Source: a virus
Taxonomy: Duplodnaviria > Caudoviricetes
Strand: one strand, 5' to 3'
DNA: 64,000 bases
IMG/VR virus record: IMGVR_UViG_3300020492_000001
Span: 1 to 64,000 of that record
Each line of letters begins with the position of its first letter. The stretch's first letter is position 1. Of the stretch, positions 40,259-60,125 are shown one piece after another. Position numbers and translations under genes: made by a program. Below the pieces are notes generated by a model that saw only the letters and a program-made list of their open reading frames with translations, was not told where the DNA came from and searched no databases.

Positions 40259-40837
40259 ATGGAAAATGAAGTTTGGATTGATATAAAAGGATATGAAGGG
40301 CAGTATCAAATATCTAATTTAGGTAGAGTTAAAAGCCTTGAAAGAGAAGTATTAAGGCCTTTAAATTCCTATACTATACCTACCAAGATATTAAAACATG
40401 GTAAAAACAAAAAAGGGTATGAATATGTTAATTTGTGTAAATACTCAAAAGTAAAACTAAACGTAATTCACAGATTAGTGGCAATACATTTTATTCCTAA
40501 TACAGAAAATAAAGCAACTGTTAATCACAAAAACGGCATAAAAATAGATAATAGAGTTGAAAATTTAGAGTGGAATACTGTATCTGAAAACACAAAACAC
40601 GCTCATAAAAATGGGCTATCCAATATAAGTGAACTAAATAGACAAATGTCAAGAGATAGACTTTATAAAAAAGTAATACATACCGAAACAAATAAAATAT
40701 TTAATTCAGTACAATCCGCCGCCGAGTTTTTTAAAATAAACAAACAGAATCTATCATCTAAATTAAACGGAAAAAAGAAAAACAATACTGGATTAATATT
40801 TTATGAAGAAAATAACTCAAACTTGAATTATAAATGA
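40259..40837 (+). CDS. NUMOD4-HNH homing endonuclease
   Basis: WIDIKGYEGQYQISNLGRVKS (NUMOD4), HRLVAIHF...VNHKNGIKIDNRVENLEW (HNH), C-terminal NUMOD1-like SVQSAAEF. Confidence 0.9.
   Translation: MENEVWIDIKGYEGQYQISNLGRVKSLEREVLRPLNSYTIPTKILKHGKNKKGYEYVNLCKYSKVKLNVIHRLVAIHFIPNTENKATVNHKNGIKIDNRVENLEWNTVSENTKHAHKNGLSNISELNRQMSRDRLYKKVIHTETNKIFNSVQSAAEFFKINKQNLSSKLNGKKKNNTGLIFYEENNSNLNYK
40813..40830. promoter_or_regulatory. 18-bp palindrome copy
   Basis: TAACTCAA-AC-TTGAATTA, at the 3' end of the HNH gene. Confidence 0.65.
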
Positions 40838-45244: not shown

Positions 45245-45272
45245 GTAACCTTTTTATTTTATTTACGTTAAA
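45245..45272 (+). promoter_or_regulatory. ECF-like promoter motif
   Basis: GTAACC-N15-CGTTAAA. Confidence 0.65.
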
Positions 45273-45548: not shown

Positions 45549-45755
45549 TATGGACATACTAATATGCATACTAATACAACTTTTGACTTTTATACCTTTT
45601 TATTTAATTTGGAGAAAAGATTGCAAGGAAATAGGAAAAGATAATTTAGCCGTAAGTTTATCAGAAAGATTTTTTTATTGGTTAATTCTTTGTCCTATTT
45701 GGATATTAGGTTTTATAAAATAATAACAACTAAAAACAACTAAAAACAAATAAAA

Positions 45756-45998
45756 ATGACACCAAAAGAAAAAGCAATGGAATTAGTGGATAAATTTTAT
45801 CAATCAACTCCTAATGAAAGTTGGATTAATCAACCAATAGGATTAAAAAAAGAATATAAAGCATGGGAACAAGCCAAACAATGCGGTTTAATAGCAGTTG
45901 ATGAGATAATAAAACAAGAATCAACTTATGATCCATCAATAAGCGACATCTTATTTTGGAAATTAGTTAAAGAAGAAATAAATCAAATTAATAATTAA
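45756..45998 (+). CDS. small hypothetical protein (MTPKEKA family)
   Basis: Paralogue of 46923..47189 and of the cassette ORF 53080..53418. Confidence 0.6.
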   Translation: MTPKEKAMELVDKFYQSTPNESWINQPIGLKKEYKAWEQAKQCGLIAVDEIIKQESTYDPSISDILFWKLVKEEINQINN

Positions 45999-46186
45999 AA
46001 ACAAATAAAAAAATGGAAACACCAGAAATTAAACAGTTAAAAAAACAAATAGAGTATTTAGAAAATGACTTAGAATTAGCAGATAAAAAAGTAATAACAT
46101 CATCTTATTGGTATTTTGCAAAAGGCTTATTACTTGGTGCTATTATTATGTACTTATTAATTAATTAACCAATAAAAATAAATAAA

Positions 46187-46447
46187 ATGACAAAAAGAAC
46201 AATTAAAATTAAAGAACTAATAAGTGGACAAGTTGATATGGGAACATTTGGACTTGTAGAACTTGAGTTACTTGCTATTGAAAAAGAAATTGAAGAATTA
46301 AAAACCAATAATTCAAAAATCATTTGGGAAAATGCTTGTAAAGCACAAATGGAATTAGTTTATGAACATTGTACACATTCACCACAAGGAACTAATGGAC
46401 ATGCTATTAAACATTGGGTAAAAAAAGCAGAATTTAAACAAGACTAA
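46187..46447 (+). CDS. small hypothetical protein
   Basis: Co-oriented ORF in the small-gene array. Confidence 0.5.
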   Translation: MTKRTIKIKELISGQVDMGTFGLVELELLAIEKEIEELKTNNSKIIWENACKAQMELVYEHCTHSPQGTNGHAIKHWVKKAEFKQD

Positions 46448-46922
46448 TATTAACAACTAAAAACAAATAAAATGGAAACAAACAATTTAACACCAGTACA
46501 ATGGTTTGCGTCAAAATCGGAGGATTTAAGAGGTAAACTTACATTAGGGGCTATTTCTCCTATTGAATATTATGAAGAATTAAATAATGTTCTTAAAGTA
46601 GCATTGGAAATGGAACAACAAAACATTAACAACTAAAAACTATGAAAACTATAATATCTTATATAATTTATTTTTTTGTGTGCAGAAAAAATGGACATAC
46701 AATACGAAAAATACATCCTAAATACCCATCAAGATTTTGTTCTAAATGTCTTCAAGAAATTAACAAATAAAAACATGAAAATTAACAAAAAGATTAAAAT
46801 CAAAGGCTGTGCTTGTTATGGTGTTAATTCTATACACCCTTGCTTTTGCAGTTTTTATGTGAATAAAACAATTGAAAAAAAAAATAAACTTAAAGAAAAA
46901 CTAACAACTAAAAACAAATAAA

Positions 46923-47189
46923 ATGACACCAAAAGAAAAAGCAATAGAATTAGCAGATAAATATTTTCCTGTAGTAGGCGATATTGATAGAATGAAATGT
47001 AACTCTCCAAGAATATATATGGGTTTTGTTGTACAATGTGCTTTAATAGCAGTTGATGAAATATATAATGGTGGCTTGAATTTACGTTATGGAGCTTATT
47101 TAGATGAATTTGAAGATAAACAAAACTATTATTCTTATTGGGAAGATGTTAAAAAAGAAATAAATCAATTAATAACTAAAAACAAATAA
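46923..47189 (+). CDS. small hypothetical protein (MTPKEKA family)
   Basis: First 23 nt identical to 45756..45998. Confidence 0.6.
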   Translation: MTPKEKAIELADKYFPVVGDIDRMKCNSPRIYMGFVVQCALIAVDEIYNGGLNLRYGAYLDEFEDKQNYYSYWEDVKKEINQLITKNK

Positions 47190-47192
47190 AAA

Positions 47193-47417
47193 ATGGAAAC
47201 AAATGCAAAAATTAAAGCAGAACAAATTTTAAAAGATTTGTGTAAAATAATAACTGCTCCAAGTGGTCAAGATGCAAGGGTGTCAAATATTGATAAACTT
47301 GTTGCTAAAAATTGTGCAATTTATATGATTGATAAATTGTGTGAAGAGTTAGATTTTACTGATGGCAGAAATGAATTAATGGCAAATATTGCCTATGAGA
47401 TTAATAATAACAACTAA
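47193..47417 (+). CDS. small hypothetical protein
   Basis: AKIKAEQI...AKNCAIYMIDKL, distantly similar to the MTPKEKA family. Confidence 0.5.
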   Translation: METNAKIKAEQILKDLCKIITAPSGQDARVSNIDKLVAKNCAIYMIDKLCEELDFTDGRNELMANIAYEINNNN

Positions 47418-47424
47418 CAATTAA

Positions 47425-47655
47425 ATGAAAACAAGGGAAGAGATAGAAAATATAATACCGAATACTGGGTATGGGTTATCATATAATTATGATGATGGTT
47501 TTATTGATGGCTACACTCAATGCCAAGAAGATATAAAGGGATATATTTTTGAAGTAGCATTTCAATTTCATAGATTAGGCAAATATAGTGGCAATACAAG
47601 CGATACTCATTTTACTGATATTTATGAAGAAACAATTAACTCACTAAACAAATAA
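47425..47655 (+). CDS. small hypothetical protein (FIDGYTQCQED family)
   Basis: Paralogue of 45273..45548. Confidence 0.55.
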   Translation: MKTREEIENIIPNTGYGLSYNYDDGFIDGYTQCQEDIKGYIFEVAFQFHRLGKYSGNTSDTHFTDIYEETINSLNK

Positions 47656-47657
47656 AA

Positions 47658-47864
47658 ATGGAAAAGAAACAAACAGCAGTAGAATGGTTTTATCAAAGAA
47701 TATTAGCAAAAGATATTGAATCAGTATTTGAACAAGCCAAAGAAATGGAAAAGCAACAGATAATAGATGCTAATATGGCAGGACAAAAGTTTATAGGAGC
47801 AGTCCCAGGTCATTATAAAAATGATGCAGAACAATACTACAATGAAACATTTAAAAAAGACTGA
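47658..47864 (+). CDS. small hypothetical protein
   Basis: MEKKQTAVEWF...QAKEMEKQQIIDA. Confidence 0.55.
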   Translation: MEKKQTAVEWFYQRILAKDIESVFEQAKEMEKQQIIDANMAGQKFIGAVPGHYKNDAEQYYNETFKKD

Positions 47865-48007
47865 CATGAAAAGATTTTGGAATATAATACATAATTGTAT
47901 AGCACATCCATTACTTATTACAAACAAAAAATGGGCTGATAGATTTCATGATTGGACAGCTGAAAAAATGTAAATAAATAAAAACTAATAACTTAAAATC
48001 AATTAAT

Positions 48008-48397
48008 ATGAGTGAAATAGATTTAAAAATAATAAATGAAATACAGGTCATCCTTGAAAAACTTAATGCTAATACTGAATTATTAAGCATCATTAATAGC
48101 TGGAAAGATACTTTAAATGATGAACAGATTTTGAATGAATTAGTAAGAATAAATAATTCAATAGAAGTCAAAATAACTGAACATGAAGATTTATTTAAAT
48201 CAATTATGATTCTTTATAATGATTGTGTAAGAATAAGAGGAAATGCAATTACACAAAAAGAAGCAAATATTATAATTGAAAATAAATATGACGCTGGTTT
48301 TTTTGCTGGAGTAGAAAAAACATATCAAAATACTGAAAGATTATTGTATGATATTATAAATGATTATAATTTTAGATTATTTATAAAAAGAATATGA
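48008..48397 (+). CDS. hypothetical protein
   Basis: Co-oriented ORF. Confidence 0.5.
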   Translation: MSEIDLKIINEIQVILEKLNANTELLSIINSWKDTLNDEQILNELVRINNSIEVKITEHEDLFKSIMILYNDCVRIRGNAITQKEANIIIENKYDAGFFAGVEKTYQNTERLLYDIINDYNFRLFIKRI

Positions 48398-48526
48398 AAA
48401 AAACAAAATGGAATCCTTATAATGTTGATATAACAGTAAGTGATATGCACCAAATAGCTAAATTCTTTAAAATAGTTAAGAATTACATTAAAATAAAAAC
48501 ATTAACAACTAAAAACAAATAAAAAA

Positions 48527-48751
48527 ATGGAAAAAGTAAATTTAAATGATGCAATCAATAGAGTTTGTGTAGAAATTATAAACGACAAAAGTTACAGAAT
48601 TGGTTGGGAAGCTAATATTGCAATGGCTTTTAAAGATGCATTTTATTTTTCAGGACATAAGCATAACAATGAAATTGTGCATGAAGTTGCTAATAAAGCT
48701 GCTGCTAATTTTCTTGACCAATTAATTAGCAAAGATGTGGAAAAAGACTAA
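48527..48751 (+). CDS. small hypothetical protein
   Basis: Preceded by the conserved linker repeat. Confidence 0.55.
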   Translation: MEKVNLNDAINRVCVEIINDKSYRIGWEANIAMAFKDAFYFSGHKHNNEIVHEVANKAAANFLDQLISKDVEKD

Positions 48752-48772
48752 TAACTAAAAACAAACAAGACA

Positions 48773-48985
48773 ATGAAAACTAAACTAGACGTAATAAGCA
48801 CTCAAATAAAGTCATTAGAGTACGATACAGAAACTAATATTCTTATAGTAACCTTTATGCAAGATAAAAAGTATGAATACTCTGATGTGTCCGCAGAAGA
48901 GTTTAGAAAGTTGATTGAGGCTGAGAGTATTGGACGACACTTCAATTTATATTTTAAAGGAGTATATCCTTACAAACAGATATAA
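48773..48985 (+). CDS. KTSC-domain protein
   Basis: STQIKSLEYDTETNILIVTF...YEYSDV...AESIGRHFN. Confidence 0.85.
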   Translation: MKTKLDVISTQIKSLEYDTETNILIVTFMQDKKYEYSDVSAEEFRKLIEAESIGRHFNLYFKGVYPYKQI

Positions 48986-49110: not shown

Positions 49111-49184
49111 GTGGAAGTAAGTCTCAGTGGCTAGAGCTTGGGGAAAAACCCGCCAGTGCATAGGTTCGAATCCTATCTTCTACA
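49111..49184 (+). tRNA. degenerate tRNA-like element (anticodon not assignable)
   Basis: 7-bp acceptor stem GTGGAAG/CTTCTAC and T-arm ATAGG-TTCGAAT-CCTAT intact; D and anticodon arms irregular. Confidence 0.45.
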
Positions 49185-49189
49185 CAAAT

Positions 49190-49262
49190 TGTCTGATGGT
49201 GTAACTGGCAACACGACTGATTTTGGTTCAGTAGAGTCTAAGTTCGAGCCTTAGTCAGACAA
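49190..49262 (+). tRNA. tRNA-Gln(UUG)
   Basis: Acceptor TGTCTGA/TCAGACA, anticodon arm ACTGA-TTTTGGT-TCAGT, T-arm CTAAG-TTCGAGC-CTTAG; no encoded CCA. Confidence 0.85.
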
Positions 49263-49532
49263 CGAGCTAGTTCGAGTCTAGTCGCTAACCGAGCGTCATA
49301 ATGACGGCAGGGACATAAAAAATCCTACAAGGCAGGTTTGACTGATGGAAAGACATCAAATATTAAAGCCCGTTTGACGACTCGGCGGATGAAGAAGAAA
49401 GACTGCAATACCTAGGTAAGTTGTAGTAATAGAGTCGTAGTATTAAAACCATGGCGGTGGTAAAAATAATAGGTGCCAAGACACTCAGTTTAAACATTGG
49501 TAAATGAAGGACGTTCAGCCTATTGTTTTTTT

Positions 49533-49550: not shown

Positions 49551-49565
49551 TTTTCTATAATAATT

Positions 49566-52450: not shown

Positions 52451-52478
52451 GTAACCTTTTAAATTTATATACGTTTAA
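52451..52478 (+). promoter_or_regulatory. ECF-like promoter motif at the head of the cassette array
   Basis: GTAACC-N15-CGTTTAA, 6 bp before hairpin 1. Confidence 0.7.
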
Positions 52479-52484
52479 ATAGAT

Positions 52485-52614
52485 AGATAACGTTGAGTAT
52501 ATATGTTCGGTTGCGATTAATAGCACGAACTTATCAATTTAAACAAAACTTAATAGAATGAACAAAATTTCAAATAAACACGAAACCGCAACTGACATAT
52601 ATACTGTGTTATGT
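52485..52614. repeat. attC-like hairpin 1
   Basis: AGATAAC-GTTG-AGTATATATGTTCGGTTGCG ... CGCAACTGACATATATACT-GT-GTTATGT. Confidence 0.85.
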
Positions 52615-53010
52615 GCTGCCTTTTGTGGTGCTGGTAAAACATTTATTTGTGATAAAACAGATATAAAGGCAGTTGAAGTTGAATATTGGAAGTATAAAGA
52701 AAAAGGACTGTTCAAAGAATATATTGAAGATGTTAAGAAGTATATCGGTAAGGTAGATTACATCTTTATTGCAACAGAGCCAGAAGGAATGAAATTGCTA
52801 CATGATGAAGGATTTGAAATAACTCTTGTTTACCCAAAAAATGAACTCCGAAACGAATATTTGGATAGATACATTGAGCGTGATAGTCCTTATGATTTTA
52901 TTGGAACATTTATGAAGCATTGGCATATATGGATTGATGAACTTAAAGAGCAAAAATATTGTAAGCATATTATTTTGGATTCAGGACAATACTTGCAGAA
53001 TGTTCTTTAA
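52558..53010 (+). CDS. cassette 1 ORF: P-loop kinase-like protein
   Basis: VLCAAFCGAGKT Walker A; starts inside hairpin 1. Confidence 0.65.
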   Translation: MNKISNKHETATDIYTVLCAAFCGAGKTFICDKTDIKAVEVEYWKYKEKGLFKEYIEDVKKYIGKVDYIFIATEPEGMKLLHDEGFEITLVYPKNELRNEYLDRYIERDSPYDFIGTFMKHWHIWIDELKEQKYCKHIILDSGQYLQNVL

Positions 53011-53016
53011 GGTTGC

Positions 53017-53109
53017 ACATAACGTTTTGCGGCTTGGCGAAGGCTGCCTAACGGATGCTCAATTTTCGCACAAATTTCAATGGCAGCTTTTGCCAAACCG
53101 CTGTTACCT
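53017..53109. repeat. attC-like hairpin 2
   Basis: ACATAAC-GTTTT-GCGGCTTGGCGAAGGCTGCC ... GGCAGCTTTTGCCAAACCGC-T-GTTACCT. Confidence 0.85.
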
Positions 53110-53418
53110 GCTGGGCGGTTTATCAGTAGGAACTTAAAAATAATATTCAAAATGTTGCCAAAAGAAAAAGCACAGGAACTTGTAAGCAAGTTTAAAGATT
53201 ACGTTCACGGATATGTTGGTAGCTCAATGCTTACCAACCATGAATACCCTGAACAAATTTTATCACAAGCAAAGAAAGTAGCAATTATTGTTGCAGATGA
53301 AATGCTCCATCAATACACTACTTTAAATGCTGATTTAATAAACGCATTGTATCGAACAGAAAAGGTTGTCTTTTGGCAACAGGTCAAAATAGAAATTGAT
53401 TATGTGTCGGAATTGTAG
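53080..53418 (+). CDS. cassette 2 ORF: MTPKEKA-family protein (alternative start at MLPKEKA)
   Basis: MLPKEKAQELVSKF...AIIVADEM...FWQQVKIEI. Confidence 0.6.
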   Translation: MAAFAKPLLPAGRFISRNLKIIFKMLPKEKAQELVSKFKDYVHGYVGSSMLTNHEYPEQILSQAKKVAIIVADEMLHQYTTLNADLINALYRTEKVVFWQQVKIEIDYVSEL

Positions 53419-53424
53419 CCTTGC

Positions 53425-53557
53425 AGGTAACGTTTCGCAGCTATATTTAGTTGCGATTTTGAAAAACAAAAGTTTAATTAATAAATAAAAGTAAATATGA
53501 AAAACAAAGTTGAAAATAAGAGCAATAATAAGCAATTGAATATACTAGCTGTTAGGC
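53425..53557. repeat. attC-like hairpin 3
   Basis: AGGTAAC-GTTTC-GCAGCTATATTTAGTTGC ... GCAATTGAATATACTAGC-T-GTTAGGC. Confidence 0.8.
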
Positions 53558-53940
53558 GTAGTTTTTTTAACTTCAAGTATAAATGGCCATTAAGAAAATA
53601 CTGGCTTAATTGGTTTAAAAGAGATGTTAAGAGATGGTATTATTCTAAAATACACGGTTTTAAAATGGGTGTATTTGATGGAACTATGATTCCAACTACT
53701 GGTAAAGGTAAATATGTATCTGTTTATTCTAAAGGTGAAATAATCCAAATTAAACATGAAAGCGGTTATGAACATTTAGAGTATGATGAAATTAGAATAA
53801 TACCATGTCAAGAAAATCACGGTGTAATGGTTGAAAGATTTAAAACAGGAAAAATGTGCGATAGAAACCACATGGATTTAAAGCAATTTAATAAAGGTAT
53901 AATTTTCGCTTCCAATGTTGAACAGTTGGCTGGTCGTTAA
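53497..53940 (+). CDS. cassette 3 ORF, hypothetical
   Basis: Starts inside hairpin 3, stops 6 nt before hairpin 4. Confidence 0.6.
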   Translation: MKNKVENKSNNKQLNILAVRRSFFNFKYKWPLRKYWLNWFKRDVKRWYYSKIHGFKMGVFDGTMIPTTGKGKYVSVYSKGEIIQIKHESGYEHLEYDEIRIIPCQENHGVMVERFKTGKMCDRNHMDLKQFNKGIIFASNVEQLAGR

Positions 53941-53946
53941 AATTAC

Positions 53947-54082
53947 GCCTAACGTTTTGCAACTTGCATTAGTGCCTTGCAAAAATACGAGTAGCTTCGG
54001 ATTAAAAAAGAACACAACAAATAAAAAACAAACATTAAATTAACAACCAAGCCAAAGGCATTGATGCAAATTGCTGTTATGC
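53947..54082. repeat. attC-like hairpin 4
   Basis: GCCTAAC-GTTTT-GCAACTTGCATTAGTGCCTT ... AAGGCATTGATGCAAATTGC-T-GTTATGC. Confidence 0.85.
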
Positions 54083-54107
54083 GCTGGCAAAAAAAAAATT
54101 AAAAATT

Positions 54108-54422
54108 ATGAGTACAATTATCGAAGACATTCAGTTTATGAAATCAATTTTGCCTGAACACTATGAGGTAAAAGAAAGTAAAAAATCAGGTTCAATTCAT
54201 TGTAAATCAAGTATTGGATTAAGAAAAACGCCATACAATAGTTTTGATAGTTTTAAACGACCAATTATTGTTGATGATGCGGAAGATGAAGAACAATGGT
54301 TTTATATCGTTGAAGCTATTAAAGCAAAGTTTGGCGAAAGGTTACAGGAAATTGACCATAACACTTGTTTTTGCCACGTCGATTTCACGATTTATCTGCG
54401 GTTTTCCGTTGCTTGCGCATAA
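54108..54422 (+). CDS. cassette 4 ORF, hypothetical
   Basis: Stop codon is the TAA of the next site's GCATAAC. Confidence 0.6.
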   Translation: MSTIIEDIQFMKSILPEHYEVKESKKSGSIHCKSSIGLRKTPYNSFDSFKRPIIVDDAEDEEQWFYIVEAIKAKFGERLQEIDHNTCFCHVDFTIYLRFSVACA

Positions 54423-54548
54423 CGGTTTGCAGCTAAACGAGGTGGCTGATTAATACCTCGAAACTTAATTAAAAGAACAAAATTATGAACACAGACAAAA
54501 GTTTATTAGAAGAACAAAGCAAGCCATCTTTTTTAGGTGCTGTTATGT
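54417..54548. repeat. attC-like hairpin 5
   Basis: GCATAAC-GGTTT-GCAGCTAAACGAGGTGGCT ... AGCCATCTTTTTTAGGTGC-T-GTTATGT. Confidence 0.85.
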
Positions 54549-54691
54549 GCCGTTTTTTATTCCAATACAGAAGTATGGATAAAGATTTAATGGTACATAT
54601 TGAAGCAAGTAGTTTAAATTATGCAATGGTGAAATTTGCAACTCACTACCATTTAATTGATGAAGTGTATGAGATTGCAAGGGTGTCCTAA
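54485..54691 (+). CDS. cassette 5 ORF, hypothetical
   Basis: Starts inside hairpin 5 (…SFLGAVMCRF is encoded by the right arm). Confidence 0.6.
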   Translation: MNTDKSLLEEQSKPSFLGAVMCRFLFQYRSMDKDLMVHIEASSLNYAMVKFATHYHLIDEVYEIARVS

Positions 54692-54697
54692 AATGGC

Positions 54698-54847
54698 ACA
54701 TAACGGAAAATAATAAACGTATGTGTTGGTGTGTGGTTAAAGTGTTCCTCTGGCTAATGGACAAGTACCATAACCGTAAGTGCCTAAAACTTACCATACC
54801 ACGCTACGGGCGGAACACGCCAACATTACGTTTATTTATTGTTAGCA
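54698..54847. repeat. attC-like hairpin 6
   Basis: ACATAAC-GGAA-AATAATAAACGTATGTGTTGG ... CCAACATTACGTTTATTTATT-GTTAGCA. Confidence 0.75.
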
Positions 54848-54862
54848 AATCGTTTTAATGTT

Positions 54863-54941
54863 TGCTAACGGCATCAAGCTAAAAGCTGACCGCCTAATAA
54901 GCGGTTAGTATATGGCGGTTTGATTTTAGGTTGTGTTATGT
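54863..54941. repeat. attC-like hairpin 7
   Basis: TGCTAAC-GGCAT-CAAGCTAAAAGCTGACCGCC ... GGCGGTTTGATTTTAGGTTG-T-GTTATGT. Confidence 0.8.
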
Positions 54942-55003
54942 TGGTGCGATGGCAAGTGTGTGAGGCAGTTTTATTTTATTAATTTTTAAAAAAGCGGAGG
55001 AAA

Positions 55004-55216
55004 ATGGAAAACTTATACTTTAGAAAAAAACTTATATGGGCTGAAATTGAGCGATTAAAACACGAACTTGAAAAGAATCAAGAGTTTATTAACTTATTTC
55101 AAAAACAAAACAATGATTTGCTAAAACAGATTGAAAAGCAATTTAAAGAAATAGAAATTGTTGGAGAGCAATTACTAAAAATAGAAACAGAACAATTAAT
55201 AAAACATGATTTATGA
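55004..55216 (+). CDS. cassette 7 ORF a, coiled-coil hypothetical
   Basis: Heptad pattern. Confidence 0.55.
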   Translation: MENLYFRKKLIWAEIERLKHELEKNQEFINLFQKQNNDLLKQIEKQFKEIEIVGEQLLKIETEQLIKHDL

Positions 55217-55482
55217 CAACAGAAAAACCACTTAGAAAAACAGGCAGTTATATAGTAATTGCCAAACGTTGGAGCAGCGAACAATCACATAATTACATTG
55301 TAGATTTATGCTCAGGAATTGATTCAGCTAAAGAAATTGCAGAAAATGAAATGCGAGAGCGTGGCGGTAAATATGGGATACAGATAATTGCTTTTAGAGA
55401 AGATAACAACGAGCAAGAAATTGTTTTTGAAATTGAAAGCCCATATAAGAATAAGGTAAATATACCTACTGATAACGCTTAG
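55213..55482 (+). CDS. cassette 7 ORF b, hypothetical
   Basis: ATGA overlap with ORF a. Confidence 0.55.
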   Translation: MTTEKPLRKTGSYIVIAKRWSSEQSHNYIVDLCSGIDSAKEIAENEMRERGGKYGIQIIAFREDNNEQEIVFEIESPYKNKVNIPTDNA

Positions 55483-55519
55483 GTGCGTAGGCTTTTAAAA
55501 ATTAATAAAATAAAATTGA

Positions 55520-55606
55520 ACATAACGGTTTGCAGCTAATAGAAGGCTGTAATTACACAAAAATATATGAGCTGTTAACTCAGCTTTTTATTAGGTGCTG
55601 TTAGTA
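55520..55606. repeat. attC-like hairpin 8
   Basis: ACATAAC-GGTTT-GCAGCTAATAGAAGGCTG ... CAGCTTTTTATTAGGTGC-T-GTTAGTA. Confidence 0.85.
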
Positions 55607-55655
55607 CCAGTAGCCAAATTAAAATTTAAAAACAATAACAATTAAAAACTAAAAT

Positions 55656-55934
55656 ATGAAAAACAACAAAGAACAATCGTACCAATACGCTGCAATTATA
55701 CAAGGCGCAATAGCAGAAATGTTAAATGAAGATAGTGATAGCGATTATAGAATATCGTTAAGCGATTTTGATGATGAGGATAAAGCAACTGCATTTTTGC
55801 ACGCATTAGCTAATATAGTGCCTTGTAATATCTATAAAAAATTAACTCAAGATGATACTGACATTTTAGGTTTTAATCATATCGCTAATAGATTAGTATA
55901 TCAATTTACAAAGCAGGACGAAGCCGAAGATTAA
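55656..55934 (+). CDS. cassette 8 ORF, hypothetical
   Basis: Fills the interval between hairpins 8 and 9. Confidence 0.6.
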   Translation: MKNNKEQSYQYAAIIQGAIAEMLNEDSDSDYRISLSDFDDEDKATAFLHALANIVPCNIYKKLTQDDTDILGFNHIANRLVYQFTKQDEAED

Positions 55935-55951
55935 ACATCAAAGGCTATTAG

Positions 55952-56082
55952 TACTAACGGTTGGTGCTTTATTTAGTGCCGACTTAACAGATAAAATTTA
56001 ATTGAAACACAAATGAAAAATAAAAAGACAAAAGTAAAATCGAAGCCGAAAACTAAGGCATTGAATAAAGCACTTGTTAGCA
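55952..56082. repeat. attC-like hairpin 9
   Basis: TACTAAC-GGTTG-GTGCTTTATTTAGTGCC ... GGCATTGAATAAAGCAC-TT-GTTAGCA. Confidence 0.85.
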
Positions 56083-56270
56083 GTAGTGCCTATGTGCGTT
56101 ACCGCTACTCAGGTAAATCTTCTTCAATATTTTGGGATATAGTAAATTCATTACCAAAAGATGCAGACAGACAAGAGATGTATGCTTTAGGATGCGTTTT
56201 GCAAAATGTTGAAGAAGATGTGTTGAGAACACTAAGGAATATTAACAGCAAGTATGTGCGTGGCAAATAG
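56013..56270 (+). CDS. cassette 9 ORF, hypothetical
   Basis: Starts inside hairpin 9. Confidence 0.6.
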   Translation: MKNKKTKVKSKPKTKALNKALVSSSAYVRYRYSGKSSSIFWDIVNSLPKDADRQEMYALGCVLQNVEEDVLRTLRNINSKYVRGK

Positions 56271-56277
56271 GCATTAC

Positions 56278-56411
56278 TGCTAACGTTCTGGCGGTTGGCG
56301 TTCGTTGCCGACTTTGGAACACTAAACTTTCACTTTTAAAATAAATTTGATATGGAACACAAAACTTCAATAAACCACGAAAACGGCAATGACGCCAACC
56401 GCTTGTTACCA
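56278..56411. repeat. attC-like hairpin 10
   Basis: TGCTAAC-GTTCTG-GCGGTTGGCGTTCGTTGCCG ... CGGCAATGACGCCAACCGC-TT-GTTACCA. Confidence 0.85.
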
Positions 56412-56579
56412 GCAGTTAGTTGGTATAAATCATTATCGCTCAACCAAAAGATGGCGCTCAAAGAAGTATCAGCATTAATTTGTGGAATGAAATGGGAAGA
56501 TTTCAATATTCTATTCAGTCCACGAGAAAGACTTGAGATATTGCACAACAAATTAATATTGGAAGGTTTCCTTGTCTAA
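56352..56579 (+). CDS. cassette 10 ORF, hypothetical
   Basis: Starts inside hairpin 10. Confidence 0.6.
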   Translation: MEHKTSINHENGNDANRLLPAVSWYKSLSLNQKMALKEVSALICGMKWEDFNILFSPRERLEILHNKLILEGFLV

Positions 56580-56583
56580 TTGC

Positions 56584-56681
56584 TGGTAACGTTTTGCAGC
56601 TAATAGAAGTGGCTGCTTGTAAGAACTTCTGAATTATAAACAAATGCTTGTAGCAGCCATTTTTGTTAGGTGCTGTTATAA
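56584..56681. repeat. attC-like hairpin 11
   Basis: TGGTAAC-GTTTT-GCAGCTAATAGAAGTGGCTGCT ... AGCAGCCATTTTTGTTAGGTGC-T-GTTATAA. Confidence 0.85.
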
Positions 56682-56700
56682 GCTGTAAAAATTACGACTT

Positions 56701-56907
56701 ATGAAAACGTATTTATCATTTTACGGAGATTGTTATTACCCAAGCGGTGGTATGGGTGATTTTATTGGAGATTACGACACCAAAGAAGAAGCGATACAAG
56801 CTATTGAAGAAGCTCACAAAAAGAACCGCCCTGATGATTTAGAATGGGAGTGGGCTTGGGCTAATGTTTGGAGTGCACATGACCGAATCGAAGTGTACAC
56901 TAAGTAA
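56701..56907 (+). CDS. cassette 11 ORF, hypothetical
   Basis: MKTYLSFYGDCYYPSGGMGDF; fills the interval. Confidence 0.6.
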   Translation: MKTYLSFYGDCYYPSGGMGDFIGDYDTKEEAIQAIEEAHKKNRPDDLEWEWAWANVWSAHDRIEVYTK

Positions 56908-56917
56908 TTTTTATTGC

Positions 56918-56981
56918 TTATAACGGATGAAGCCTTACCCAGCGAAGGTGTCGACCGAGTTGGGTAAGGGTTGGGTTATAA
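56918..56981. repeat. attC-like hairpin 12 (shortest, 64 bp)
   Basis: TTATAAC-GGATG-AAGCCTTACCCAGC ... GTTGGGTAAGGGTT-GG-GTTATAA. Confidence 0.85.
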
Positions 56982-57032
56982 GCTGACGGTTACTAATGTT
57001 ACTATGAAAAACAATTTAAAAAAAATAACGAT

Positions 57033-57218
57033 ATGATTGAAATAGAAGAATTATTTGGTGGAAATGATGCCGAAGAACACAATGTTTTATACACTATTAT
57101 TAAAAATAGAGGATATAAATATTTTGAAGAAACACCCAAAACAAGTATGACTTGCGGATTAATTAAAGATTTACACGAACTAAATTACGAGATTGTAAAA
57201 AAAAACGTTTCAAAGTAG
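57033..57218 (+). CDS. cassette 12 ORF, hypothetical
   Basis: Fills the interval between hairpins 12 and 13. Confidence 0.55.
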   Translation: MIEIEELFGGNDAEEHNVLYTIIKNRGYKYFEETPKTSMTCGLIKDLHELNYEIVKKNVSK

Positions 57219-57229
57219 CTACCGTTTGC

Positions 57230-57353
57230 TTATAACGGTTCGCAGATAAACGCAGTTTTATGAAACAGAAATTAGATATAGAAAAAATTAGAGAGTTGGA
57301 AACCATAGCTAAAGAATTAGATGCTGAAAAATTGCGTTTATCTGCTGTTAGCA
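57230..57353. repeat. attC-like hairpin 13
   Basis: TTATAAC-GGTTC-GCAGATAAACGCAGTTTT ... AAAATTGCGTTTATCTGC-T-GTTAGCA. Confidence 0.85.
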
Positions 57354-57457
57354 AATCGGTTTGCGACCACTCTTGGATGAACACAGGATTATCAGTACAA
57401 GGCAAAAGTTTGATGGTATGCACCAAATGTAGGGAAACCAAGCAAACTGTTTGCTAA
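57260..57457 (+). CDS. cassette 13 ORF: coiled coil plus CDH..C..C zinc-ribbon-like tail
   Basis: VCDHSW...MVCTKC; starts inside hairpin 13; stop is the TAA of the terminal TGCTAAC. Confidence 0.55.
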   Translation: MKQKLDIEKIRELETIAKELDAEKLRLSAVSKSVCDHSWMNTGLSVQGKSLMVCTKCRETKQTVC

Positions 57458-57480
57458 CTATTATATGTAAACTACCCTTT
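57452..57480. other. candidate attI-like primary recombination site
   Basis: Lone TGCTAAC box not followed by G or a hairpin arm; TGCTAAC-TATTATAT-GTAAACT; 67 bp upstream of the recombinase start. Confidence 0.55.
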
Positions 57481-57525: not shown

Positions 57526-58359
57526 ATGAATTTAGAAAAGTGGATAAATAGATATAAAACTGATTGTGCTTTAAAGTATAATAGTGATGCAACCAAAGAA
57601 AATTACACTTCTGGAGTTAAATCTTTTCTTATAAAATTCGATAAATATTCTGAGCCTAAAGAAATACCGACTCAGGAAATTAAAGAGTATTTATTGACTT
57701 TTAAAACGATAAATACACGAAAGCATAACCTTTGCTCTATTAAATCTTTCTATAAATTAACTGTAGGTATGCCAAGCAAGATTGATAAGATTCCTTATCC
57801 TAAGTCTGATAAGAAACTACCTATCGTTCTTTCTGTAAACGAAATTCAAAGAATGTTTAATGTCTGCCAAAATAAGAAGCATAAAGCAATTTTAGCTTTA
57901 CTGTACTCTTGTGGATTACGTGTATCGGAACTTATAAATTTGAAATGGAAAGATATTGATAGAAGTAGAATGGTAATTAATATAATCCAAGCTAAGGGAA
58001 ATAAGGATAGGCAAGTCCCATTATCTCAAGATTTGATTAATGTATTAGAAAGTTACTGGAATGAGTACAAGTCCGCCGAGTATGTTTTTAATGGACAAAA
58101 ATCACTGCAATACACAGATAGAAGTGTAGGAGAAGTAATTAAACAGTTGGCAGATAAAGCAGGAATATGTAATAAAAGGGTTTACACACACCTTATGCGT
58201 CATTGCAGCTTTACGCACATGGTTGAGAACGGAACTGATATTTCGCTTATCCAAAGACTCGCTGGACATTCTAGTGTAAAAACGACTAATATCTACCTCC
58301 ATATCAGCCATAATCACATAAGTAAAATCCAAAGTCCACTAAGTAATATTAAATTATAA
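57526..58359 (+). CDS. tyrosine recombinase, IntI-related/XerD-like (277 aa)
   Basis: LPIVLS..E, LYSCGLRVSE (R), AKGNKDR (K), HLMRH (HxxR), LAGH, TNIY (Y), C-terminal IQSPL. Confidence 0.92.
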   Translation: MNLEKWINRYKTDCALKYNSDATKENYTSGVKSFLIKFDKYSEPKEIPTQEIKEYLLTFKTINTRKHNLCSIKSFYKLTVGMPSKIDKIPYPKSDKKLPIVLSVNEIQRMFNVCQNKKHKAILALLYSCGLRVSELINLKWKDIDRSRMVINIIQAKGNKDRQVPLSQDLINVLESYWNEYKSAEYVFNGQKSLQYTDRSVGEVIKQLADKAGICNKRVYTHLMRHCSFTHMVENGTDISLIQRLAGHSSVKTTNIYLHISHNHISKIQSPLSNIKL

Positions 58360-58374
58360 CTCAAACTTGAATTA
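58357..58374. promoter_or_regulatory. 18-bp palindrome copy
   Basis: TAACTCAA-AC-TTGAATTA, overlapping the recombinase stop codon. Confidence 0.7.
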
Positions 58375-58379
58375 AAAAC

Positions 58380-58757: not shown

Positions 58758-60125
58758 ATGGACTTAAAACAAAAAGAAAGAGAAGTACTTAATCTATTTG
58801 CGGATAATGCTGATTTATTTGTTAATTGTGAACACTTGGTATTTGAAAACTTATGGTCCACAAACTTTAATAAGGTTAAATTCAAAATTATAACTTATAA
58901 TCATAGTAAAGGTAAGAAATCTGACATTTACCTGCTCTCTAATATGCTTATTAAGGCAGGTTGTAACAAAAAAGAAATCGGACTTGAAGTGTCTGAGCCT
59001 AATTATAAAATCGCTAAGAATGTAGATGAGTATGTTAAGGATATTTTTGATGAGTATTCTAAGCGACAATTAACTCCATTACTTCAAAGAGTTCACTCAG
59101 AGCTTAGTTCTGAATTAGGAGATGTAAATAGCTGTTTAGAAGATTTAAAGACGGCAGTGAACGATATAGAGAGTATTAAGAATAATCTTTCTGTAGATAA
59201 AAAAGCAACTGATATTTTTGATCAAGCATTTAACGAGTTAATGGAAGCTCAGAATAATATAAAAGAGATAGTTGGTTATTCTACAGGGCTTAAAGATTTA
59301 GATAAGATGTGTGGTGGACTAAAACAAGAGGTTATTGTTATTGGAGCGCCTCCTGGTTCTGGTAAAAGTTCATTAATGGTAAACATCGTTGATAATGTAG
59401 CTATCAAACAAGGTAAGCCTGTTGCTGTGTTTTCTTTAGAGATGCCTGCTACTCAATTAATGAAGAATATGTGGGCCAACAACCTTACAATTAATTCTTA
59501 TGCGATACGTGGCGGAGGATTGTTAGATGAAGATTTAGTAAAAGTAAAGAAGTACAAGCAAAGATTAAAAGATAATTTAGTCATAGATGACACCCCAGGA
59601 ATTACTTGGCAGTATATGGAGACTAGAATAAGAAAGATGCGTAAAACAGTTCCTATGAATGAATTGATAGTTGTTATGGTAGACTATATTCAAATTATGA
59701 GAAATACTATTGAGGAGACAAGAGGGATTAGTAGTGAAGAGCAATTAGGATTAAGAAGTAACGGCTTAATGGAACTTTCTAAGAAATATAATCTTTGCAT
59801 GATGGAATTATCTCAATTATCTAGGGAAGTTGGTAAGAGAGAGAATAAAAAGCCTGTAATGGGAGATTTAAAAGGCTCAGGAGCTATTGAAGCAAACGCT
59901 GTACAGATATGGTTACTCTATAGGCCAGACTACTTTGAAACCGATCCTATGGAGAATGGAATGTCTTTAAAAGGACTCTGCGAGATTAATATGGCTAAGA
60001 ATAGATATGGAGAGACAGGTAGAAGATATGTAAGATTTGAAGGTAAATACTCAGCATTTAAAGATTTTGATATTAATGAAGTTAATGGATTAGTAACAGG
60101 AAGTAGCAATGGAGATGAGTTCTAA
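58758..60125 (+). CDS. dnaB: replicative DNA helicase
   Basis: GAPPGSGKSS, FSLEM, VDYIQ, LSQLSR, DLKGSGAIE, AKNRYGETG. Confidence 0.92.
   Translation: MDLKQKEREVLNLFADNADLFVNCEHLVFENLWSTNFNKVKFKIITYNHSKGKKSDIYLLSNMLIKAGCNKKEIGLEVSEPNYKIAKNVDEYVKDIFDEYSKRQLTPLLQRVHSELSSELGDVNSCLEDLKTAVNDIESIKNNLSVDKKATDIFDQAFNELMEAQNNIKEIVGYSTGLKDLDKMCGGLKQEVIVIGAPPGSGKSSLMVNIVDNVAIKQGKPVAVFSLEMPATQLMKNMWANNLTINSYAIRGGGLLDEDLVKVKKYKQRLKDNLVIDDTPGITWQYMETRIRKMRKTVPMNELIVVMVDYIQIMRNTIEETRGISSEEQLGLRSNGLMELSKKYNLCMMELSQLSREVGKRENKKPVMGDLKGSGAIEANAVQIWLLYRPDYFETDPMENGMSLKGLCEINMAKNRYGETGRRYVRFEGKYSAFKDFDINEVNGLVTGSSNGDEF

Follow-up and report, generated by a model that had tools for sequence, protein, structure and literature searches.

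In integrons, the acquisition of the I2 helix is credited with having given the IntI recombinase its activity on single strands (Escudero et al. 2020, PMC7790495). Tyrosine recombinases that lie near attC sites and lack the IntI-specific domain are not regarded as integron integrases (PMC4889954). Those recombinases that the tree of Cury et al. placed between IntI and Xer were always found near fewer than three attC sites. XerC and XerD, which are also devoid of I2, integrate the folded single-stranded DNA (ssDNA) of CTXphi (PMC7790495). In phages, classical integrons have been described in temperate members, and clusters of attC sites lacking integron integrases (CALINs), with methyltransferase cassettes, in virulent ones including P12002L (Qi et al. 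2023, PMC9892861). The stretch of DNA analysed here (the window) represents the first 64 kb of a 76,304-bp IMG/VR virus record, which is rated 100% complete. It carries the gene of a compact tyrosine recombinase, P0001, preceded by an array of 13 cassettes that each begin with a hairpin site (Table 1). P0001 is likely to be a site-specific recombinase dedicated to an integron-like cassette system that the phage carries. With modest confidence we also lean towards the broader view that attC-type cassette recombination can take place without I2, P0001 representing a second, phage-borne lineage with a complete integron-like platform that acts on host-type sites.

P0001 matches the Pfam family Phage_integrase (1e-38) and has an N-terminal SAM-like domain, Phage_int_SAM_4. 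An initial annotation of the window had recognized the catalytic set R, K, HxxR, H and Y, a length of 277 aa, a PxxLSxxE patch, a C-terminal IxSPL tail and only 4 residues between YWNEY and YVF. All these features are present (LPIVLSVNE, IQSPL and YWNEY-KSAE-YVF), and the R-K-HxxR-H-Y set is invariant across 60 relatives. The statement that the motifs are those of IntI-type proteins held for the tail, since SP(L/V)D is common to P0001, IntI and other I2-less relatives, while XerC and XerD end with HPR or HPK instead. It did not hold for PxxLSxxE, which is generic because XerD carries it too.

The I2 region, an IntI-specific helix domain of about 35 aa near patch III, is absent from P0001, as had been proposed. 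The IntI model TIGR02249 aligns to P0001 in two pieces (6-180 and 243-314) and 62 model positions (181-242) are skipped. When P0001 is aligned with genuine IntI of the probable host phylum, 65 residues separate its catalytic Lys from the His of HxxR, and 64-65 do so in its relatives, against 105-106 in IntI; the latter carry a 29-aa insert corresponding to the I2 region and a further insert of 12 aa. The AlphaFold2 model (pLDDT 93.5, pTM 0.85) has no extra helix at the I2 position: after a helix covering residues 168-181 comes a short loop, in which a single residue is in strand conformation, and a new helix starts at residue 198. In Foldseek searches with this model, VchIntIA (2a3v, TM 0.79) and archaeal XerA (5hxy) were equal top matches, both with an E value of 1.2e-15.

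The profile comparison suggested in the initial annotation placed P0001 below the curated cut-off of each NCBIfam model considered. The best sequence-profile match was archaeal XerA (NF040815; 198 bits for a cut-off of 220), followed by XerD (TIGR02225; 175.3 for 330), IntI (TIGR02249; 164.5, in two stretches, for 265) and XerC (TIGR02224; 162.4 for 335). A careful IQ-TREE search was performed with 68 sequences, XerA sequences being left out; the resulting tree is unrooted and its backbone is unresolved. In this tree, XerC and XerD together are separated from all other sequences at 100/100. The IntI clade, which includes one phage-borne IntI, is supported at 100/100 and is nested (99/96) inside a 98/92 clade of I2-less recombinases. 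P0001 lies outside the IntI clade and its core family (17 rows) forms a clade of its own (95/84). This separate position, together with the XerC/D split, indicates that P0001 is neither a XerC/D protein nor an IntI that has lost its I2 region, and sequence comparison thus supports a lineage apart from both.

The term "IntI-related" of the initial annotation therefore needs to be taken in a broad sense only. Relative to the XerC/D split, the P0001 family is placed with IntI, and it shares the SPLD tail, but the nearest relatives of IntI in the tree are other I2-less chromosomal recombinases. No hairpin array was found beside the closest chromosomal I2-less relatives, in four loci. Among the sequences nearest to the IntI clade, P0167 (at 99/96) and P0180 are I2-less recombinases with N-terminal extensions; the genes around them may hold clues to how IntI arose.

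Across the 76.3-kb genome, all 13 elements of one architecture are confined to positions 52488-57350 on the plus strand. Each element consists of TAAC, a spacer of 4-6 nt (G-K-T-T-K), an arm of 17-26 nt, a variable loop, the complementary arm, 0-2 nt and GTTA; the core motif occurs 7 times where 0.8 would be expected. The cargo open reading frames (ORFs) are all located on the plus strand and point towards the recombinase gene. The TAAC box mostly overlaps the stop codon of the preceding ORF, and several cargo ORFs have their start within their own site, in the loop or the 3' arm. Since site 7 follows site 6 so closely, the cassette of site 6 has no ORF and is essentially its own site.

Folding of these elements was analyzed by RNAalifold on 37 elements from many loci. 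The consensus displays a TAACG/TGTTA stem with a conserved G.T as the fifth pair (35 of the 37 elements), a 4-nt bulge on the 5' side alone, and an arm with compensatory changes in 8 of its 9 pairs. The covariation score was 0.534; shuffling lowered it to 0.133 (0 of 500), and slid controls gave 0.06-0.13. An element scan gave, overall, 96 hits on the plus strand, 13 on the minus strand and 2 in shuffled DNA. Arm mismatches comprise 106 G.T and 27 A.C combinations, which designates the plus strand as the strand selected to fold.

Comparison with related phage contigs indicates how the cassettes move. In two of these (L003 and L005), the recombinase region is 98.8% identical to the window at the DNA level, while the flanking replication genes are only 83-85% identical. 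Four cassettes are common to these contigs and the window; they are 97.7-100% identical, they occur in a different order, and one of them adjoins the proximal site there. Identity switches on and off inside TAAC(G), and the crossover is always located in this box of 4-5 nt, even where neighbouring elements share longer similarity. These block boundaries show that the mobile unit is a hairpin and the ORF behind it, and that crossing over takes place in the 5' box. On the left, conserved backbone sequence reaches as far as the first TAAC (52488-52491); on the right, it resumes at the proximal TAAC (57455). As the limit between variable and conserved DNA falls exactly at the proximal box, the proximal site behaves as an insertion point. 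Phages with identical recombinase proteins display at least four different proximal cassettes. An exact search of metagenome contigs for one of the window cassettes gave no match.

A second line of evidence comes from the flanks of the sites. The 3' flank of each GTTA pairs with the 5' flank of the next TAAC; the paired stretch averages 5.15 nt, and 0.69 nt with the flank of its own element (0 of 100,000 permutations). When loci were pooled, this rule held for 51 of 69 elements, compared with 4 of 69 in the control. Such complementarity between successive elements implies that the site of each cassette is complete only in the excised circle. At the level of the system, the array cassettes thus behave like those of integrons, as mobile units with a split site and a fixed crossover point.

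At the proximal site, the box separates variable DNA, derived from cassettes, on its left from backbone DNA on its right that is conserved in all relatives (consensus TAAC-TAYTATATGTA). This attI-like site is kept 55-75 nt before the start codon in every relative (57-100% identity). For relatives with 39% identity, two contigs diverge exactly at a TAAC box located about 65 nt upstream of the gene. In 20 non-redundant loci with recombinases 57-100% identical to P0001, 70 elements were counted in 72 kb of upstream DNA and 2 in 114 kb of downstream DNA, on the same strand. Among the 14 loci with at least 2 kb of upstream sequence, 11 carry two or more elements; the number rises to 12 when L019 is included, because its sites use CAAC. 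In L019 the change is concerted, CAAC being present in the hairpin boxes and in the proximal site alike.

The initial annotation had named homologues that never neighbour hairpin arrays as the finding that would speak against its reading; what was found is that homologues, close and distant, are consistently flanked by such arrays in one geometry. Its proposal of a distinct I2-less lineage serving hairpin sites is borne out by the tree, by the fixed geometry of the arrays and by the cassette moves at the box. Overall its interpretation is partly supported, and comparative sequence evidence supports its core.

Two further observations concern the region upstream of the gene. In more distant relatives (L043-L046, 39-47% identical), metagenome contigs often stop within about 50-130 nt on the 5' side of the recombinase gene, which is the pattern that a population-variable array would produce by interrupting assembly. 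In Polaribacter phage Leef_1 (L080, 2940-3000), an integrase 32% identical to P0001 is preceded about 45 nt upstream by TAAC-GCCCCTATATACGCA; before it there are also successive small ORFs, on the same strand, with GTTGSYAAC-like motifs. Leef_1 was considered as a cultured example and rejected: a TAAC-GCCCCTATATACG box does lie some 45 nt upstream of its integrase, but clear hairpins of the architecture described here are missing.

The phage sites were also compared with arrays located beside canonical IntI genes in the probable host phylum; their assignment to the attC type is based on this comparison of our own and not on attC covariance models (IntegronFinder/HattCI). In the host phylum, the attC bottom strand beside IntI reads TAAC, a 5-nt spacer, the arms, 2 nt and GTTA. 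This bottom strand is the IntI-coding strand, it lies upstream of intI, and the cassette ORFs are on the other strand. When the scan tuned on the phage sites was applied to one canonical IntI locus (L099), 10 sites were detected on the IntI-coding strand and none on the other. The asymmetry, the crossover box and the position relative to the recombinase gene therefore equate the phage plus strand with the attC bottom strand.

Among the cassettes of the window, no ORF has a Pfam family and PHROG matches are of unknown function only. In relatives, 10 of 20 larger cassette ORFs encode DNA-modification enzymes (N6/N4, C5 and Dam-type methylases and a TET-associated glycosyltransferase); a 51%-identical relative bears MT-A70 and N6_N4 methylase cassettes. 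Homologues of the cassette-1 protein elsewhere are ordinary genes without hairpins. The N-terminus of the cassette-2 ORF (53136-53197) is paralogous to two non-cassette ORFs of the window (45743-45801 and 46910-46968), so that resident genes and cassettes share ancestry.

From this anatomy, and from the precedents of IntI and CTXphi, a mechanism can be proposed in which P0001 would be the catalyst, folded ssDNA the substrate and single-strand exchange the reaction. P0001 would recognize imperfect hairpins of the plus strand, made of the TAACG/TGTTA stem with 4-6 cassette-specific bp, the 5' bulge of 4 nt and the covarying arm, and this recognition would proceed without an I2 helix. It would also recognize, in double-stranded form, the attI-like TAAC-TAYTATATGTA just upstream of its own gene. 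Cleavage is predicted where the 5' TAAC box meets the spacer, which is where tyrosine recombinases usually cut. Cassettes would be excised as circles and inserted beside the recombinase gene. By analogy with IntI and with XerCD on CTXphi, exchange of a single strand is probable, replication then resolving the product. The cargo would be small accessory genes, in relatives often orphan DNA methyltransferases, with a likely role in the rapid shuffling of counter-defence genes.

Several observations weigh against P0001 being the recombinase of such a system. The link between enzyme and sites is one of association in sequenced loci. I2 is reported to be needed for the activity of IntI on attC (Messier and Roy 2001, cited in PMC4889954; PMC7790495). 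One related locus (L017) has no array and another (L024) has a single element. A search of viral and metagenome contigs for the predicted empty platform, in which GATAGATAAC would directly adjoin TAYTATATGTA, gave no match; this null result carries no weight as evidence. As regards folding, 93% of cells are paired against 71% after shuffling, a percentage that is partly circular because the elements were picked for arm complementarity; the variety of pair types and the count of 96 hits versus 2 are free of this circularity. Enrichment of G.T on a coding strand would equally fit an RNA structure.

Arrays also occur in phages where no recombinase was detected. A jumbo phage (G403, loci L088/L092; IMGVR_UViG_3300037424_001372, 324,744 bp, rated complete) has a three-cassette mini-array, which includes a homologue (87%) of the cassette-1 protein of the window, and isolated TAAC...GTTA sites; no PF00589 gene was found in its 324,744 bp, a CALIN-like state. 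Polaribacter phage P12002L (L094, NC_028924) has hairpins of the same architecture as the window on its minus strand, at about 30.0-32.9 and 38.9-40.9 kb, with two box types, TAAC...GTTA and CAAC...GTTG, beside methyltransferase and Mom-like genes. These hairpins are probably the CALIN of Qi et al. 2023, and no tyrosine recombinase was detected in P12002L by tblastn. Finally, canonical IntI, at full model length and above cut-off, was detected in 113 of the 401 sampled genomes of the phylum of the Chitinophagales MAGs (metagenome-assembled genomes), and IntI1 was reported to recombine several phage attC-like sites, one of them from P12002L (PMC9892861).

The last two points mean that a host IntI could move phage cassettes, and they lead to the main rival explanation, which we judge unlikely. 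The arrays would be true attC clusters of the CALIN type, moved in trans by a host IntI with I2, and P0001 would be a lysogeny integrase or a genome-multimer resolvase with TAAC-TAYTATATGTA as its attP-like or dif-like site. The identity of site architecture with host attC bottom strands, like the arrays without any recombinase in the jumbo phage and P12002L, agrees with this explanation. It is weakened by the place and polarity of the array, which are fixed relative to the P0001 gene over 39-100% identity, by the limit between variable and conserved DNA exactly at the proximal box, and by the situation in L019, where hairpin boxes and proximal site have both changed from TAAC to CAAC. A lysogeny role also agrees poorly with the absence of prophage copies from isolate genomes, and four of the closest chromosomal I2-less relatives have no arrays. 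The intermediates of Cury et al. neighbour fewer than three sites, whereas up to 13 are found here.

An improbable alternative keeps P0001 as the cassette recombinase but lets it act on double-stranded or cruciform DNA, with a classical two-strand exchange as performed by Xer at dif or pdif. P0001 lacks the very element credited with the shift of IntI from double to single strands (PMC7790495), its fold matches XerA as well as IntI, and its attI-like partner has no hairpin; cruciform extrusion may also be compatible with the data. Nevertheless, the arms vary in sequence while their pairing is kept, so they cannot offer a recombinase a conserved sequence to bind in double-stranded form. A bulge of 4 nt on one side only and a conserved G.T pair make sense only in a folded strand, and the 106:27 bias of G.T over A.C indicates that a single strand folds.

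A main function of the hairpins in RNA or in regulation (as terminators, processing sites or promoter-stem-loops), with cassettes shuffled by homologous recombination and an unrelated recombinase, is very improbable: the folding strand is indeed the coding strand, several ORFs begin within elements, arrays occur without a recombinase and T4-type phages offer a precedent (PMC2839356), but the crossover is fixed in a box of 4-5 nt where those of the precedent are variable, the flank complementarity is realized only in an excised circle and not in mRNA, polarity and asymmetry are identical to those of attC beside IntI, and terminator-like sites are not in excess.

The reading of P0001 as a dedicated cassette recombinase, if true, would have several consequences. 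Recombination of the attC type would either be older than the acquisition of I2 or have arisen twice. An I2-less recombinase that a widespread phage family keeps in the IntI position, beside up to 13 cassettes, challenges the view that I2 gain was decisive (PMC7790495) as well as the exclusion rule of PMC4889954 cited above, and the P0001 system is a natural setting in which to ask what hairpin recognition minimally needs. Virulent-type phages would own an "evolve on demand" device. They could build up a store of counter-defence genes, for example orphan methyltransferases, and rearrange it, and an exchange of cassettes with bacterial integrons might also occur. Their cargo rich in DNA modification mirrors the bacterial integrons that bank anti-phage defence cassettes. 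A compact, structure-specific recombinase would also be of interest as a tool.

The minus strand encodes a terminase, a portal, a major head protein and large virion proteins, which characterizes a tailed phage. Numerous small genes lie on the plus strand, as does a replication module made up of an SF2 helicase, DnaB and a NinB/Orf-like protein. The G+C content is about 32%. P0001 is the sole PF00589 (tyrosine recombinase) gene across the 76.3-kb genome. The direct-terminal-repeat label given by IMG/VR could not be reproduced by exact comparison of the first and last 100-1500 nt. In a genome collection covering 185,579 species, with one genome each, P0001 matched only short MAG contigs, and no copy was found as a prophage integrase. 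These contigs had been binned as Chitinophagales or Bacteroidota, with one Calothrix, and for this reason a Bacteroidota host is probable for the phage. Contigs bearing relatives of P0001 are phage-like.

The initial annotation had placed an initiator gene downstream of the recombinase gene and proposed that expression is coupled to replication. The supposed initiator, also considered as a conserved accessory partner, was not retained: the ORF located there has no family assignment and only close relatives keep it (Table 1). Coupling of recombinase expression to replication is possible. GC skew is positive on the plus strand in the recombinase half of the genome, which may fit the plus strand as lagging-strand template; a transcription bias could give an equal signal.

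The phage motif GTAACCTTT(N12-14)TACGTT that precedes the first cassette site is also present at 45245 and 60559 (and, weaker, at 49561), at the starts of plus-strand gene blocks. It is possibly a phage-specific promoter, which would put one promoter at the distal end of the array. No Pc-type promoter was seen beside the insertion site, the sole repeated promoter-like motif being this distal one. A scan for sigma-70 promoters and terminators gave no excess over shuffles and is uninformative for this type of host. In an Rfam search (E up to 1) over 44-64 kb, only tRNAs were found and no known RNA family covered the elements.

Other features of the window were noted. A palindromic motif around AACTCAAASTTGAGTT occurs at gene-cluster boundaries (34919, 35968, 37768, 40812, 42221, 43583, 45109, 49529 and 58356); the last copy (58356-58378) directly follows the stop codon of the recombinase gene. 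It may be an operator or a bidirectional terminator. An HNH endonuclease gene (40259-40837) has partial copies, with 76-78% DNA identity, elsewhere in relatives (L005:2551-2664 and L007:3368-3505), that of L007 being placed between the 124-aa ORF and dnaB; these scattered copies suggest homing-endonuclease mobility. Eight copies of TAACAACTAAAAACAAATAAAA(A)ATG lie directly 5' of small ORFs at 45716-48779 and represent a conserved leader or translation-start region. These leaders have no Shine-Dalgarno sequence, which is typical for Bacteroidota. A weak second tRNA-like Rfam match (49111-49184; 30.9 bits for a gathering score of 29), which was not called by ARAGORN, lies just upstream of a tRNA-Gln (49190-49263).

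Table 1. Features of the P0001 locus and their positions in the window.
Feature	Position	Strand	Remarks
Repeated phage motif GTAACCTTT(N12-14)TACGTT	52451..52488	+	Immediately before first cassette site; repeat families D6, D15
Cassette array, 13 cassettes (hairpin site, then ORF(s))	52488..57458	+	Left backbone ...AGATAGA-TAAC; right attI-like site
Hairpin site 1, 124 nt, TAAC...GTTA	52488..52611	+	Left end of array
Hairpin site 2, 87 nt	53020..53106	+	
Hairpin site 3, 127 nt	53428..53554	+	Weaker arms
Hairpin site 4, 130 nt	53950..54079	+	
Hairpin site 5, 126 nt	54420..54545	+	Begins cassette 100% identical, differently placed, in L003/L005
Hairpin site 6, 144 nt	54701..54844	+	Longest; G+C-richer loop; site 7 begins 21 nt on
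Hairpin site 7, 73 nt	54866..54938	+	
Hairpin site 8, 81 nt	55523..55603	+	
Hairpin site 9, 125 nt	55955..56079	+	Begins cassette 'D', which adjoins attI-like site in L005
Hairpin site 10, 128 nt	56281..56408	+	Begins shared cassette 'B'
Hairpin site 11, 92 nt	56587..56678	+	Begins shared cassette 'A'
Hairpin site 12, 58 nt	56921..56978	+	
Hairpin site 13, 118 nt	57233..57350	+	3' arm within ORF 57260-57457
attI-like site TAAC-TATTATATGTAAACTACC	57455..57476	+	Box 68 nt upstream of recombinase start codon
Compact tyrosine recombinase P0001, 277 aa	57526..58359	+	R132, K157, H222, R225, H248, Y257; without I2 insertion
ORF, 124 aa	58380..58754	+	3' of recombinase; no Pfam family; PHROG of unknown function; kept only in close relatives
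DnaB-type replicative helicase	58758..60125	+	Replication module context

Among the known systems, the promoter-stem-loop (PeSL) cassettes of T4-type phages (PMC2839356) resemble the array in that small ORFs flanked by stem-loops are shuffled between related phages via circles. They differ in relying on homologous recombination at variable points within about 100 bp, with no recombinase identified (PMC2839356), whereas a fixed box and a recombinase are present here. The phage CALINs (PMC9892861) have in common the attC-like sites flanking accessory genes, in particular DNA methyltransferases, in flavobacterial phages. They have no recombinase and are read as integron parts for bacterial IntI, while the P0001 array has a recombinase and a proximal site in fixed geometry. 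In the literature searched, no description was found of an I2-less recombinase that a phage encodes together with its own proximal site next to arrays of this kind.

Archaeal XerA (NF040815; PDB 5hxy, 4a8e) is the best profile match and a joint best structure match of P0001, and has the same compact two-domain size without I2. P0001 nevertheless remains below its cut-off (198 bits for 220), and XerA is a chromosomal dif resolvase whereas P0001 is a phage gene beside a cassette array. XerC and XerD are, like P0001, I2-less recombinases of the Xer/IntI group. On CTXphi their substrate is folded ssDNA, one strand is exchanged and replication resolves the product, and this reaction is the best mechanistic precedent for P0001. 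They differ from it by the 100/100 split, by scores of 162 and 175 bits against cut-offs near 330 and by an HPR instead of an SPL tail. In addition, P0001 is phage-encoded and would serve arrays of many cassettes rather than one phage attP, and nothing indicates an involvement of dif or FtsK.

Integrons resemble this locus in several respects. A recombinase gene stands next to an insertion site and to cassettes whose boundary sites are imperfect palindromes; these sites show the 5-nt/2-nt asymmetry, crossing over occurs in the 5' AAC box of the strand that folds, the ends of the cassettes are complementary, and cassettes are reshuffled. In both, the folding strand is on the recombinase-coding strand, upstream of the gene. 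The differences lie in the recombinase, which has no I2, scores 164.5 bits against a cut-off of 265 and falls outside the IntI clade, and in the cargo ORFs, which are on the folding strand, co-directional with the recombinase gene and thus inverted compared with classical cassettes. The phage system has no visible Pc-type promoter and resides in a tailed phage with a replication module. The P0001 system is of the integron kind, yet P0001 is no member of the IntI family.

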